Positions 27,797 through 42,700 of a stretch of DNA of 64,000 nt are shown here, one piece after another. The notes below the pieces were generated by a model. That model saw only the letters and a list, made by a program, of their open reading frames with translations, was not told the origin of the DNA and ran no database searches. The stretch is from Euglena gracilis (taxonomy: Eukaryota), in assembly GCA_039621445.1 (NCBI GenBank), contig CP154954.1:6955425-7019424 (forward strand). Direction: 5' to 3'. The position numbers and the translations under genes are program-made. Position 1 is the first letter of the stretch; each line of letters starts with the position of its first letter.

Positions 27797-30700
27797 GCGC
27801 AGATCATCGAGGTTCGGCCCAAAGTGGTGCTCAACACGTTCATCCCGCGGGCGTGCAAGCAGGACTGCCTCACTGCCCCGTACGCCCAGGCCCTCGCGCA
27901 GATTGCGGAGGTCGCCGACGAGGTCATCGACCACTACATCCCGCAGCCAGGGGGGCCAGGCAAATTAGCAGGGATTCCCTCTGATTCGTGGCACGAATAA
28001 TCACGAATAATCACGAATCACCACGAATTTCGGATTTTTCGAAAATCACGAATAATCACGAATAATATTTTTTCCTGGAAATTTTTTTTCTTTACAAATG
28101 TAGTCATTCAGCATTCAGAACTGTGTTTTATTTATTCTTTAGAAAAGGTTTTCTTCGGATTCTGACGATGAGGTTGAGGACCGCTTCACTGTTGCGCAAC
28201 AACACTGGCCGTGAGCGATTTTTCTTTCTGCTTTTGTGATGGATCATGTTTTCAGCCAAAAAGGGGTTTGTTTGGACAATAGAACGCTCACACAATGATG
28301 ATGCATAGGTGCAACGTTGGCAACTATGTGTACCCCCCCCCCTTGTCCAACGACTGGGCTTGTCTGACGACCACCCCGTGCCCATAGATGATCCTTTTGT
28401 ATATATACAATGTTGGTTCGGCCAAAATTTATTAAAAGTTGGCCAAAAACGGTCAAAAATGACCAAAAATGGCCTAAAAATGGCCAAAGGTGGCCCAAAA
28501 TGGCCAAAAGCCCCCCCAAAAAAGTCGAAAAACACTCTTTTTGACGTTTGGTGTGGATGGACGACAGTTTAAGGATGCCAGAAATTATTTTTTTCCCCAA
28601 AGTCGACCCGTTTTTTTTTTTTGCCAAAATACGGCCACTTTTTTGGTCATTCTTCCCTATGATTTTTTTCATTGAATGTGTTGGGACGGGGGATTTTTTT
28701 TTTTTGCTTAAGGACCGCCCTGCTTCCTGCCGGCATCCCAGCAGTCAGTTTAGCTGAAAACCGGGCGGATTTTTGGAACCACGAATAATCACAAATAATC
28801 ACAAATAATCACGAATAATCACGAATAATCACAAATCAGAAATGGCAGTCCCCACCACGAATGGGAGGGAAACCCTGAAATTAGGAACCGCCCCCGGGTT
28901 CGATGTCAATTGATGCCCCCCCCCCCCCACCGACAAGCACGGGCTCCGGATTCCCAAGACAGGACCACTCCTTCTTGTCACCATGCTGAAACAAAAGTCC
29001 TGAACGGAGCACTGACTTGTCCAACTATCACCACAATTTCCTGTTTTTCTGGAAGTGTGTGTTGCCCTAAATGAAAACAGCCTCGCAAAAGGATGAAGTA
29101 TTTGTTATTTTCAGTCAGGATTGGCCCCCTGGGCTGGGGTGTGCATTCCCCCCTGCCCCCAACTGCTGCCGCTGCTCATCGAGAGCCTTGGCCGTGCCCC
29201 GGCACACCTCGCCATCATCCGCGAGGCCACCGTGGCTCTCATCAAGTGCGTGGCCCGGTGCTAGGGCACCTCAACAATTTCATTGCTCTGTGAGGGTAAG
29301 AAAAATAGCCATTTTAATGAAAATCTGGTTTAATTCACGCCATTTCATTTTTTTTGCTTCCATTTCATGTGTCGATGGCGATGAGTCAGATTGATCTCGT
29401 TGGCCGATGATTTGATTTGTCTCACTGCCCCCATTGAGATCACGACGAAAGGATGTGTCTTTCATTTTCATCATATATCATCACAATGCCACAATGTCCT
29501 ACACGGTGAGTGTTGTATTATCTGGAACCTCCTTGGAGGCACCACGATGGCTGTGGTGGTGACCAAGTTGGGTGATTTTAGGTCTTTTTTTTCGGCCATT
29601 TTTAGTCCATTTTGTCACTTTGACCAAGCCACTGCCTGTGTGTGCCATGAATGACAACGATGAGACCTTGTACAAAAAGCGTTCAACAAATAATTAATTA
29701 AATCATTGTGATTATTATTATTATAAATTGAATTATTATTCATTTATTATAATTCCAAATTATGAATTATTATAAATTATTGTTATAATATTACAATTCA
29801 GCGACTTTGTACAGTGCATATGTCCAGAACATATTTTGCATTTTTTTGTACCATGCCCAAGCCACGTGCATGACCTGAGTCCTTTGCACCTACGTGCCGT
29901 TGTGGTGCCACTGGATCGCTTGCAGCCCCTGCCAATGCCCGCCCCCCCCCCCCCAGGGCGATGCAGGAGGAGTCGCTCGGGGCGGTGCTGGCGGAGATCA
30001 AGACCGCCATCCAGGGCGCGTCCCTCTCCACCCGGCGGGGCGGCGCCGCCCTTGCCGGCTGCCTGTGCCCCGGCCGTCCCCCGGCGCTGCTGCCGGCCAG
30101 GCCACAAGCAATCCCTGACCCCCCCCCCCCAAATAAAGCACGGGTGCATCGAAAGTGGACTGTCGTTGGGTGTGCACCTCTTTTTGGACCTTCCCTGCCT
30201 GATTCTGGTCAATTTTCTTTTATAATTATAATCAAAGTTGGGACTGTGATTGTGGTGAACCGCCGCCTTTGGCCGGGGGGGGGGGCTTTTGGACCGTTCG
30301 TCGCTGCTTCGTGCTTTATTGGGGATATTCCACTGATGAGTTGTGTGAGTATGCACGCGTATCTGTCTGCATGATGTACATTTGTGTGCCCCCCCTCTTG
30401 GTCAACTTTTTTTTTGACCCCGTCATTCAGGTAAACACCTAAAGAGTTGCGTTTTTTTCCGCATATTGCCAAAGCTGCAGTCGAAGTTGAGATGCCATTC
30501 TGGGAGTCTCACACGCGCCATTGGATGTTCCCAACGTGGATCCAGATTTCGGATTTGAAGAGCGCCTGCCAACTGTCATCCAGAACGTCATCCGACTGTT
30601 CAACGACAAGGAGGTGTGCCATTGTGCCACACCTAGCCACATCACTCCTCATCACACCACACCTCGTCACGCCTGGCCATGCCACGCCACTATGCTACAC

Positions 30701-39700: not shown

Positions 39701-42700
39701 ATTAAACCTTCTGTCACTCACAACCTCGGTCAGTACCAGACTCAGATTTAAAGTCGGCTTCAGAGGGTGATACTTAGGGTGGGGGATGCTGCTCAAGTGG
39801 AGCCAGGCCGAAAACGCGCAACCGGCTTTCTGAGCCTTTTTTTTCCAGCGTTCCCCCACAATAAGTGTGTGGCCCTGGCGGCACTGCCTTCGGGGCGGAT
39901 TTGCCCAAGCTGGTGACTACCCTGCTTCAGAAGGCCATGGCCAAGGTATTTCACTCTTGCCCACGCTGTCTCCCCCCCCAGTGTGAAGCTACACACGCGT
40001 GCATGCATGCATGCACACACGCATACACACACACAACGCACACACACACACACACACACACAACGCACACACACACACACACACACACACACACACACAC
40101 ACACACACACACACACACACACAACGCACACACACACACACACACACACACACACACACACACACACACACACACACACACACAACACACACACACACAC
40201 AAACACACACACACACACACACACACACACACACACACACACACACACAAAACCACCACACACACACACACACACACACACACACACACACACACACACA
40301 CACGTACGCGCACACGCGCACATACGCACTTTGTGCTGGCCTCTGCCCTCGCTGTGCCGGCCCCTGCCGAATCCCCCGCCCCGCCGCACTGGTGATCAGA
40401 ATTTCGATAGCGTCCATGCGCCGTTGGGTGATTAACCTCGCGGTGTTGTCCCAGGGCGATGTGACGTACGCAGCGATGGTGAACAATGCACTCTACTGGA
40501 TCCAGAAGGTGTGCTTTGTTATTCCTCAACGAATGGAGATGTTTCCCACCAACATCAACGAACGTTTGGATTTGGGACTCGATGGAACCATCCAACACAA
40601 GCCCACAGCTCTTCCTCAAGCCACTTGTTTCGGCTGGACTGAATGCATGGATGTTTGCCTCCCTCATACAGCCGATTCTCATCAGAAGTTCACAAACTGG
40701 GCACCAACAATCGGATTCTCAAACTCCATGAACGGCACTGAAGATGGGCCCCTCATGGAAATCCTTAATTTCTAATTCCACAAAAAAAAACATAAAAATA
40801 TTATCCAAAAAAATGAGAAAACAACTGTCTTGTGTCGAACGCTTCCTGGGCCTTTTCTTTTTAGTATTTCCCCCCCAAAATAAGCAAACTGTCGAGGATT
40901 TTTTGGGGTTATCCTGTCCCCCAATTTGTGATGGAGCCGAAACGATCGAAAACTCTATTGCAAGAATGCTGTACACTGCATAAACCAATCGAACGTTCGT
41001 TAAATTCTGGCTGTCATAAGTTCAAGGAAGTTCTTGAAACCTTTCTTCAATGGTGCTGTTGCTTTACTGAAATCAAGTTTTGTGGTTGAGTCTTTGGACT
41101 TTTTCACATGCAATACCTTGTTTCGAAAAATTCCTTCACCAGGAGAAAATACTGGGGTTCTGTTGTTTTACGGCCTTGGGACATACATGTTGAGAAACTT
41201 CTTTTGGTTAAAAACTTTATGCATGGGAAAACCACGCATCATAAATGAGACCCCCTTCGAGGTTTTCAGCAACCGAGCCCAATAGTTTTTGACAGAGCGT
41301 TAATTAAGCTGTTGGGTACCGTACCCACCCTGGGGGGGGTGTCCAGCCGGCCAGGAACTTTTTTTTCCAGCCCCTGGCTGGGCTGTGGACCCCTCCCCCA
41401 GGGGGGGGTCCACTGAAATAGAGTTTGGGCCAGCCCATGAGCAGGTGGGACCAAAATTTTTTCTGTGCAAATGCCAGAATTTTTCTAAAAAATGTCCCAA
41501 GTGGCATTTTTTTTGAATGCTTTTTTTTGTTTCATCTCCAAATTTTGGCTGAAAATTTGGAGACAACACATTTTGATTTTGGCTTCTTTACCTGTTTTTT
41601 TGTTTTGTTTTGAGGTACCCCCCTTGTCCAGATGCCAGCCGGCCCCTCCCCCGGACCTCCCACCCCCAGGAGGGTGGTCCATAAGGGATTGTATTGTTTT
41701 CTTTAATTAACCCCTTGGGACAAAAGGACGACCAATCCGGGTTCGAAAATTCGAAAGTCGAAAAACTTGGTTTTTTTTCATGGTGGATGGAGGATTGTGC
41801 AAAGATGCCAAAAATCACTTCCCCCGAAGTTTTCCCATTTTTGCGGGATTACAGGATTTTTTTTTTTGCTTTCGGACGGCCCAGCCCCCCAGCAGGGTAG
41901 TAAGTGATTTCTTTGTGGCCTTCAAAAAGGCTCAGAAAAATCGGTCAAAGCACGGGAAAAATTTTGGGGGTTCCCCGGGGGTCCCGACCCCCCCCCCCCC
42001 AGTCTGACGGGGGGGGGAGGGGGGGGGGGGGGGTCTGGACCCCCTCCCCCTCGGGGGGGGGGGGGGGCGGGGGGTGGTCTGACCCCCCCTCTCCGCAAAA
42101 CCACCGCTCACTTGATACCCTGCCCCCCCAGTGGGGGTCCAGCTTACACTCTTTTCCAGCCGGCCTGAGAGACCCACGCCCCCGGGTCTTTAAGACAAGC
42201 CCCAGTCTTGGAGGGTTAGCTGGGCTCTGATAAAAAACAAATGATGAAAAACAAATATGTACGACTACAAGCTTTTCGAAGGGCTTAGGTTGGACCCCTG
42301 GGGTTGGGAGGGTTAGTAATGTTGACCTTGGTGTTTATTACCCTCCAGCTGCTCTCCTCCTCCTCGTTTGTGGAAATCGATGTCAAAGTCAGGCTTGTGC
42401 TTAGTCGGGTGCCTACCCCGCGGGGGGGGGTGCTAGGGGCAGGCACCCTGTATCACCCCGTCCTCCCCCCGGAGGGGCAGGGTTTTTGGGGGTGCCTGCC
42501 CATAGCAGGCACCCCCTCCGACCCCGGCGTCGAAGGCGCCGGGTGCCCGTAAAAGGCCATTGAATTCAATGAAAATTTTCTGGGCCCCCCGAACCCCCCC
42601 CAGGGGGGTGTGCCTGCTGGAGGCAGGCACCCTGTAACACCCACCCCCCCCGGGTGGTAAGCACAAACGTGGTCAAAGTCGTAACTTGTCCTGAGTGATG

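Follow-up and report, generated by a model that had tools for sequence, protein, structure and literature searches.

Short inverted-repeat transposons with 8-bp target-site duplications and nonconventional introns in two Euglena gracilis genes: a young exonic insertion and older introns near background

Euglenid nonconventional introns have borders other than GT-AG and carry CAG/CTG, or variants of these motifs (PNAS 2025, PMC12501133; Milanowski et al. 2014, PMC3935182). According to the published code, 3 nt separate the 5′ border from the start of the stem, and 5 nt lie between its end and the 3′ border (PMC12501133). Roughly 70% of E. agilis introns are of this kind (PMC12501133). Short direct repeats make their borders slidable, and their origin is called unclear, with MITEs proposed as a hypothesis (PMC12501133, PMC3935182). 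The accessible portions of these two papers name neither a transposon family nor a target-site duplication (TSD) length; 'TSD' and 'target site duplication' occur 0 times in the text available for PMC12501133. Intron 4 of gapC in E. agilis strain ACOI 323 was recently gained and has been interpreted as a product of double-strand-break repair (Milanowski et al. 2016, PMC4770533). Like the young insertion described below, it is a polymorphic (between strains) nonconventional intron with eight-nucleotide direct repeats at its junctions, and these repeats exceed in length those of the other introns studied. Unlike for that insertion, no repeated element or inverted-end family is reported for it in the portion available. 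Earlier papers have already put forward the MITE origin and reported an 8-nt repeat at an intron of recent gain.

Transposon-derived introns also include the introners of Micromonas and dinoflagellates and the MITE-derived introns of Fritillaria (review PMC11282704). There, as here, a multi-copy nonautonomous DNA element creates an intron and its TSD gives one border. Those introns use the spliceosome and canonical or near-canonical sites, whereas the element described here would depend on the euglenid stem-dependent code.

The window, the whole stretch of 64 kb that was analysed, contains two Euglena nuclear genes, both on the forward (+) strand. Its introns share the borders, stem register, CAG/CTG or variant motifs and slidable repeats described in the published excerpts for the euglenid class. 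The window differs from those accounts, as far as their available text goes, in that actual TIR/TSD copies are seen, and in that the sum 3 + 5 = 8 ties the code to the TSD.

The 3′ part of a homologue of GCN1 (eIF2-alpha kinase activator) lies at 27800–42930, as located by tblastn with P0006 and by GCN1 matches. Within it, 6 nonconventional introns and 12 conventional ones were mapped. Its junctions were placed solely with P0006, a GCN1 homologue from EukProt (2879 aa; ~60% identity on the exon used as query), under a no-indel constraint with the exception of 31977–32192. The homologue searches found no E. gracilis GCN1 protein, just an 81-aa fragment (P0002) reading through an intron; a homologous-protein search with exon 27800–27946 gave no match, and enumeration of in-frame junctions without a homologue left far too many candidates. 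The second gene, that of EukProt EG_transcript_6538 (gene 2; cysteine-rich, 449 aa), occupies 46069–62637 and extends beyond the window. It was located by the homologous-protein match P0001, protein-to-genome mapping, and RNA contig pieces and loose ends. Eleven nonconventional and 6 conventional introns were mapped in it, the sixth conventional donor being at 62637, with junctions taken from the transcript-derived protein P0001. RNA and DNA reads were mapped on 51277–64000 only, and the raw RNA runs were assigned by species label only. A repeat map divides the GCN1 part into short repeat-free stretches, among them 26671–30710 and 31571–36617. All 17 nonconventional introns mapped in both genes (16 older and one young) were used, with no chosen subset.

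The young insertion lies in a coding exon. The element itself (55523–56897, CAGGCACC...GGTGCCTG) has a 13-bp perfect TIR, CAGGCACCTATAG, and is flanked by the TSD GTGGTGGG at 55515–55522 and 56898–56905, as supported by RNA joints and DNA contigs (55515–56905, +). A stretch of 1383 nt is skipped in RNA, corresponding to the element and exactly one TSD copy, and the reading frame is thereby restored. The joint 55514>56898, which has 8 ambiguous letters, is found in 11 reads of RNA run X21, 6 reads of X22, and RNA contig X15. The element is multi-copy: 15 and 11 contigs of DNA run X2 with unrelated flanks stop precisely at 55523 and 56897. One DNA allele lacks the element and is represented by the sole empty-site contig in X2 (depth 87).

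Perfect 8-bp TSDs flank four elements, the young one and three others with CAG/CAA...CTG/TTG ends and no assigned strand. TE_a (33661–33944; CAGGGATTTTTTTAAG.../...CTTAAAAAAAACCCCTG, TSD GTTCCTGC) is nested in intron 32833–34288. TE_b (39505–39694, 190 bp; CAAGCACC.../...GGTGCTTG, TSD CTTGCCAT) is related to the young element but has an internal deletion; it matches the two ends of that element at 98.5% and 93.8% identity. TE_c (48591–49920; CAGGCATTATTTTTTTAAGGCG.../...CGCCTTAAAAAATAATAATGCCTG, TSD GAGAGCGG) is nested in intron 48540–50367. TIRs, a direct repeat of fixed length and copies with differing flanks identify these as TIR transposons/MITEs. Among 404 strong-TIR pairs, exact flanking repeats occur four times at length 8 (in one case as a palindrome artefact), once at 7, and never at 9–12. 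When TIRs of at least 11/12 were required, 4 of 70 pairs, including the same palindrome artefact, were 8/8 in register, and 0–1 of these pairs reached at least 7/8 in each of eight other registers. Window-wide, partly decayed TSDs (TIR of at least 9/12) showed no excess, with 19 pairs of at least 6/8 at register 0 vs 6–19 elsewhere.

Absence from mRNA, with borders other than GT/GC-AG, was indicated by P0001 for the 11 introns of gene 2 and by the homologue only for the 6 of GCN1; among the 15 of 67 joints listed, RNA joints also support one of the 11. Terminal pairing from +4 to −6, with 3-nt and 5-nt spacers, comprises at least 4 consecutive pairs in 15 of the 17 introns. The exceptions are 50427–51356 (none) and 39380–39882 (3 pairs). 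CAG at +4..+6 is combined with CTG at −8..−6 in seven introns; the other ten have CAC/GTG (4), CAT/ATG, CGT/ATG, CGG/CCG, CCG/CGG, GGG/CCT, or none.

The six GCN1 introns, all placed with P0006, have flanks with 3–6/8 identity. Intron 27945–29160 (stem CAGGGGGG/CCCCCCTG) is flanked by CCCGCAGC and CCCCCAAC (6/8; 27944|29161). Its junction is the sole stem-bearing, in-frame and indel-free one (HYIPQLLP vs HHVSALLP in P0006); a longer rival stem, 27941–27958/29122–29139, would add 7 residues. Since both flanks are C-rich, an identity of ~4/8 is expected for this pair. Intron 30072–30532 has a CGT/ATG stem and scores 4/8, and the alternative junction 30067|30529 scores 2/8. Intron 31977–32192 (CAGGGCTGCGCGG/CCGCCCGGCCCTG; flanks GTACTCCC/GCGCTACC, 5/8; 31976|32193) is backed by frame and by VLPYYLK vs VLPYYTK of P0006, but its junction is less certain because the next exon is 5 residues longer than that of P0006. 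Intron 32833–34288 has CACGGC/GCCGTG ends and flanks AAGATGTC and AAGGTGCC (6/8; 32832|34289), with the sole stem-bearing, no-indel junction found (INEKMPPSTRQ vs INDKMPPSTKQ). Its flanks are the only pair notable alone: ~2/8 is expected by composition (binomial p ~0.004, or ~0.06 after 16 tests). The remaining two are 35119–36412 (CAC/GTG; 12-pair stem with 4 wobbles; 3/8) and 39380–39882 (CAG/CTG; weak stem; flanks GCCCCATA/GCGGCACT, 4/8; 39379|39883).

The older introns of gene 2 were mapped with P0001 and range from 1/8 to 5/8. Those with 2/8 include 48540–50367 (CAGGGCTT/AAGGCCCTG), 51422–51655, 53922–54435 (CAG/CTG), 58052–59003 (CACGGCA/TGCCGTG), and 59041–59431 (CGG/CCG), whose inverted arms are similar across ~16 nt with one indel. 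Intron 51709–52281 has a CCGG/CCGG stem and flanks CTCCCAAC and CTCCTGCC (5/8), and a contig piece starts at 52282. Intron 62046–62580 (CAGGGCTG/CAGCCCTG) scores 3/8. The others are 46116–46441, 50427–51356 and 54469–55458. A 53-nt exon at 54411–54463, predicted from contig word depths, was superseded by the P0001 mapping.

The original prediction had compared eight older introns with the young insertion, and seven of these comparisons stand at junctions with protein support. The values 6/8, 6/8, 5/8 and 4/8 for 27945–29160, 32833–34288, 31977–32192 and 39380–39882, 2/8 for 48540–50367, 53922–54435 and 58052–59003, and 8/8 for the young element were all obtained again. The eighth, 51412–51621 at 4/8, had wrong borders and is not an intron. 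P0001 reads SEGHAK|TQEKER with 0 mismatches and puts the intron at 51422–51655 (234 nt, 11-pair stem, no CAG/CTG), which agrees with the 118 nt that the RNA contig has from 51357 to 52282. The eight introns 30072–30532, 35119–36412, 46116–46441, 50427–51356, 51709–52281, 54469–55458, 59041–59431 and 62046–62580 had been omitted. With the wrong one corrected, the original eight, a selected subset, give p = 0.034.

Across all 16 older introns of the two genes, the flanking 8-mers match at 54/128 positions (mean 3.4/8), against 3.12/8 for mismatched 5′/3′ pairs (permutation p = 0.24). At least 6/8 is reached by 2 of 15 (P = 0.057 per intron; binomial p = 0.21) and at least 5/8 by 5 of 15 (p = 0.07); these tests, like the Spearman tests below, were run before the 16th older intron was mapped. 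Both flanks fit the consensus nCCCC|RnC, with a purine at position 6 in 14/16 and 16/16 and C at position 8 in 12/16 and 10/16, which inflates their identity. True pairs score highest in register 0 among 17 registers (54 vs 30–49), but mismatched pairs peak there too (49.9 vs 33–47). If the transposon prefers certain targets, unrelated TSDs would themselves look alike, and the mismatched-pair control is then conservative.

These data probably show two states, a young insertion and older introns near background, rather than a measurable age series. A real series, in which CAG-CTG nonconventional introns all began as insertions with 8-bp TSDs and GCN1 introns are middle-aged and gene 2 introns old, is possible but rather unlikely. 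The six GCN1 introns match at 28/48 (p = 0.0075 vs mismatched pairs), compared with 9–19 in slid registers, but the split by gene was made after the data were seen and the full set of older introns shows no such pair-specific excess. The best register, the 6/8 of 32833–34288, the CAGGG start shared with TE_a by 6 of the 17 introns, and the recently gained gapC intron, whose 8-nt repeats are longer than those at the other introns studied (PMC4770533, available portion), also fit a series. Against it, identity had been expected to rise with stem perfection and does not (Spearman 0.12 and 0.22, p > 0.4; with the young element added, 0.28 and 0.37, p > 0.16), the best-kept inverted ends (48540–50367 and 59041–59431) score just 2/8, and one intermediate point, 51412–51621, was an artefact. 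Some real TSD remnants are possible among the GCN1 introns. The transposon-to-intron idea is well supported, by TIR elements, CAG...CTG ends, 8-bp TSDs and an exonic copy removed with one TSD; the graded series of decaying TSDs that had accompanied it is not demonstrated.

The X2 empty-site contig has variant alleles at 55478, 55496 and 56910, and the joint-bearing RNA contig X15 has the reference alleles at these sites and at 58018. The element-bearing haplotype thus appears to be the spliced one, as deduced from SNP linkage in X2, a sample other than the RNA runs. It is improbable that the element is unspliced and that the joined RNA comes solely from the empty allele. The empty-site contig in X2 would allow this, and P0001 has the residues of the empty allele (I for V from 56910, H for Y from 58018). 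X15 carries the opposite alleles, however, and in X21 the variant is present in only 4–5 of 13–15 reads at linked SNPs, against 11 joint reads. The reference allele accounts for 10 of 15 X21 reads at 56910, a share close to the 14/19 at 58018, far from the element.

Direct repeats left by double-strand-break repair at intron gain rather than by transposition, as proposed for the 8-nt repeat of the E. agilis gapC intron (PMC4770533, portion available), are a very improbable source here, because the young insert is one of many copies in a family whose inverted ends are defined and whose other copies have other flanks, three more copies or relatives are each bordered by a perfect 8-bp repeat of their own, and repeats of constant length at TIR ends are characteristic of a transposase.

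In sum, the genome carries short nonautonomous DNA transposons whose inverted ends run CAGG...CCTG and which make 8-bp TSDs. The exonic copy at 55523–56897 is removed from the RNA with one TSD copy and is presumably spliced from its own allele. In the published code, the cut falls 3 nt upstream of CAG and 5 nt downstream of CTG. As 3 + 5 matches the TSD length, such an insertion would function as an intron as soon as it landed. Older flanks are probably alike mainly through a common junction consensus (C-rich sequence, a pyrimidine followed by a purine across the cut, and C at position 8); their pair-specific similarity is at background overall, with an unexplained excess limited to the six GCN1 introns. 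More speculatively, the splicing code may be an RNA-level mirror of transposon excision, its 3-nt and 5-nt spacers adding up to the TSD of a still active CAGG...CCTG family, so that every exonic insertion is born as a precise intron and most CAG-CTG introns are descendants whose flanks decay with age; this is possible but rather unlikely. The window offers a concrete candidate, an element family with 8-bp TSDs and an allele-polymorphic exonic copy absent from mRNA as the code predicts, which makes the MITE-origin hypothesis directly testable, genome-wide and at the bench. A decay series, if true, would provide a clock for intron gain, which these 16 introns do not establish.

An 8-bp TSD is typical of the hAT superfamily, and ends beginning CAGGG (TE_a) or CAGGC are presumably the hAT-type end motif, as in maize Ac/Ds. 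The window elements share both features with Ac/Ds and are candidate hAT members on TSD length and end motif. In contrast to Ac/Ds, no transposase gene accompanies them in the window: a Pfam scan of 11 long ORFs, from 432 ORFs of at least 70 aa in the 64 kb, detected no hAT transposase (BED finger, dimerisation domain), just reverse transcriptase, tyrosine recombinase and a weak Dam match. Giroux and colleagues reportedly described Ds as a de novo intron in 1994. A microsatellite is also present within 39250–59249.

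The nonconventional introns mapped in the window lie in two + strand genes. Gene 1, with exons from 27800 to 42930, is a GCN1 homologue represented by its 3′ part. One exon matches the EukProt protein P0006 (2879 aa) at 60% identity, and P0006 as a query returns GCN1/ILITYHIA proteins. Gene 2 extends from 46069 to beyond 62637 and encodes P0001, the 449-aa protein of EukProt EG_transcript_6538, to which its exons are 83-100% identical. This identity places the origin of the window in Euglena gracilis or a species very close to it. Exons are short and GC3-rich, and the DNA also contains poly-C runs and long microsatellites. 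The latter occupy 20987-26670, 30711-31570, 36618-36736, and 50874-51276, within or between introns, reach 1.5 kb at 25158-26670, and leave short mappable stretches of the GCN1 gene between them.

Seventeen nonconventional introns were mapped: gene 1 has six and gene 2 has 11. A further 17 introns, 12 and five respectively, are conventional and lie with both borders inside the window, in addition to a conventional donor at 62637. Junctions in gene 2 were chosen such that the spliced translation gives P0001, with extra support within this gene from RNA joints, contig pieces, and loose ends of reads aligned to 51277-64000. Junctions in gene 1 are purely homologue-based and were placed by indel-free alignment to P0006, then by a stem that fits the published register or by GT/GC-AG borders. 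Of the 17 nonconventional introns, 15 have an allowed junction that puts at least four consecutive base pairs exactly at +4/-6, the 3-nt plus 5-nt spacer geometry established by experiment in PMC12501133.

The young insertion is the element at 55523-56897 in gene 2, which carries a perfect 13-bp TIR, CAGGCACCTATAG, and the TSD GTGGTGGG. The RNA skips 1383 nt, that is, the element plus 8 nt, leaving a joint with eight ambiguous letters. This joint is covered by 11 and six reads in the raw RNA runs X21 and X22, respectively, and by one contig of the RNA set X15. The DNA run X2 contains one empty-site contig at depth 87, and the variants 55478T, 55496T, and 56910A occur at that same depth, indicating that the insertion is allelic and recent. 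The 8/8 flank identity originally noted for this element is real and informative. The spliced X15 contig has the reference alleles, and X21 shows the variant at these SNPs in only 4-5 of 13-15 reads, versus 11 joint reads. From these data, in which DNA and RNA come from different samples, we infer that the allele carrying the element yields spliced transcripts. Fifteen contigs with unrelated flanks stop precisely at 55523 and 11 at 56897, and word depth over the element exceeds that of its flanks roughly a thousandfold, a figure that does not represent a copy number.

The RNA runs express both alleles of gene 2, as seen at SNPs 55478, 55496, 56910 (G/A, V/I), and 58018 (T/C, Y/H). The published transcript-derived protein corresponds to the variant, empty-site haplotype.

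The CAG and CTG ends of the element are the motif needed by the nonconventional splicing system, whose cuts fall 3 nt before CAG and 5 nt after CTG. Such cuts remove the element together with 8 nt, equal to one TSD copy, so that the exon is restored exactly. This geometry and the exact removal are observed at 55523-56897. The splicing code may have evolved on such elements or been exploited by them. A MITE hypothesis for nonconventional introns is already in print (PMC3935182, PMC11282704, and PMC12501133). Short direct repeats are likewise known to be frequent at their junctions, and PMC4770533 describes a new, strain-specific intron bearing eight-nucleotide repeats. A literature search covering few subscription journals found no paper naming an element family, an 8-bp TSD, or the 3 + 5 = 8 link.

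The original prediction also held that the 8-mers flanking the older introns, here the other 16, are decayed TSDs forming an age series. Seven of its eight comparisons, all on the + strand, recur letter for letter at supported junctions: 27945-29160 and 32833-34288 (6/8), 31977-32192 (5/8), 39380-39882 (4/8), and 48540-50367, 53922-54435, and 58052-59003 (2/8 each). The eighth, 51412-51621 at 4/8, has wrong borders, since P0001 reads SEGHAK|TQEKER; the real intron is 51422-51655, with flanks of 2/8. The comparisons comprise half of the older introns (8/16). The remaining eight score 4, 3, 2, 5, 5, 1, 2, and 3, the first 5 falling to 4 at two of the slid junctions, which are equally valid.

Across all 16 older introns, the claimed graded decay cannot be told apart from chance combined with a consensus common to the junctions. 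True pairs match at 54/128 positions, or 3.4 per 8 (permutation p = 0.24). Mismatched pairs, made by combining 5′ and 3′ 8-mers from different introns, average 3.12/8, a high background because both flanks follow one consensus, ~nCCCC|RnC. At position 6 a purine occurs in 14/16 introns on one flank and 16/16 on the other; C fills position 8 in 12/16 and 10/16, respectively. When the 3′ window is slid, the true-pair sum is greatest at register 0 (54 versus 30-49), and the mismatched pairs likewise peak there (49.9 versus 33-47); the peak is thus largely a product of codon phase and the consensus that the flanks share. The consensus also explains why, along the true diagonal, 51/120 positions match within the 8-mer versus 54/240 in the eight positions on each side. 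Tail tests, made on the first 15 introns mapped, are weak too: two scored at least 6/8 (p = 0.21) and five at least 5/8 (p = 0.07). Nor does TSD identity follow stem quality. The Spearman coefficient is 0.12 when quality is taken as the Watson-Crick run and 0.22 when it is taken as pairs in 12 (p > 0.4 in each case), or 0.28 and 0.37 with the young element included (p > 0.16). The introns with the best-kept inverted arms, 48540-50367 and 59041-59431 (about 15/17 arm positions alike in the latter, by hand count), score 2/8. Split by gene after the data were seen, identity is 28/48 in GCN1 (p = 0.0075) and 23/72 in gene 2 (p = 0.95); the GCN1 excess is suggestive. Given its own composition, 32833-34288 is the only individually notable pair (about p = 0.004, by hand arithmetic), and the C-richness of 27945-29160 gives an expectation of about 4/8.

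A scan of the window for TIR pairs with exact flanking repeats yielded four cases at length 8, one at 7, and none at 9-12; the register control agrees with the preference for length 8. One length-8 case, 9409-9744, is a palindrome artefact. Besides 55523-56897, perfect-TSD copies are located at 33661-33944 (CAGGGAT...), 39505-39694 (derived by deletion from the family of the young element), and 48591-49920 (CAGGCATT...). A hAT assignment is proposed for these elements from the TSD length and an end motif. Pfam searches of the long ORFs in the window detected no transposase, and the long minus-strand ORFs at 5274-14060 belong to a retroelement. This intron-free region, with ORFs of 1276, 835, 717, and 551 aa, matches reverse transcriptase (two ORFs), Dam methyltransferase (weakly), and, under the cut-off score, a tyrosine recombinase (Phage_integrase). 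It looks like a DIRS-like retroelement, possibly in two copies.

Several introns have additional features. A rival stem for 27945-29160 is longer than the one used and would insert seven residues absent from P0006. The intron's second, longer inverted pair, 27944-27960/29121-29139 (18 nt, 83%), lies just inside and overlaps the used stem. Within the insert lie a 23-nt inverted partner at 28855-28877 and, at 28433-28509, a degraded member of the AAAATGGCC-repeat family; the insert looks composite or nested. The intron at 39942-40455, after exon ...QKAMAK, has two readings. One is conventional (39945|40455, GT-AG); the other is nonconventional (39942|40452), three bases upstream, with a 5-pair stem, flanks TGGCCAAG/TGTCCCAG (6/8), and a Q matching that of the homologue. 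The intron 50427-51356, which contains the ATGT microsatellite, is removed from RNA, as the loose ends at 51357 correspond to 50397-50426. At none of its five slidable positions does it show a terminal stem or CAG/CTG; it carries just a CCAC direct repeat of 4 nt and does not fit the published nonconventional code.

The intron 51422-51655 (234 nt) is in frame and stop-free within an ORF open from 51358 to 51756, and its retention would add 78 residues. Its stem begins with GGG/CCT rather than CAG/CTG. A CAGGG start, as at the perfect-TSD copy 33661-33944, is present in 6/17 nonconventional introns. The ends CACGGC...GCCGTG are common to 32836-34283 and 58054-58998, in different genes, and CAC starts also occur at 35122 (CACGCC) and 54472 (CACC). 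The CAC starts constitute a second end class next to CAGGG.
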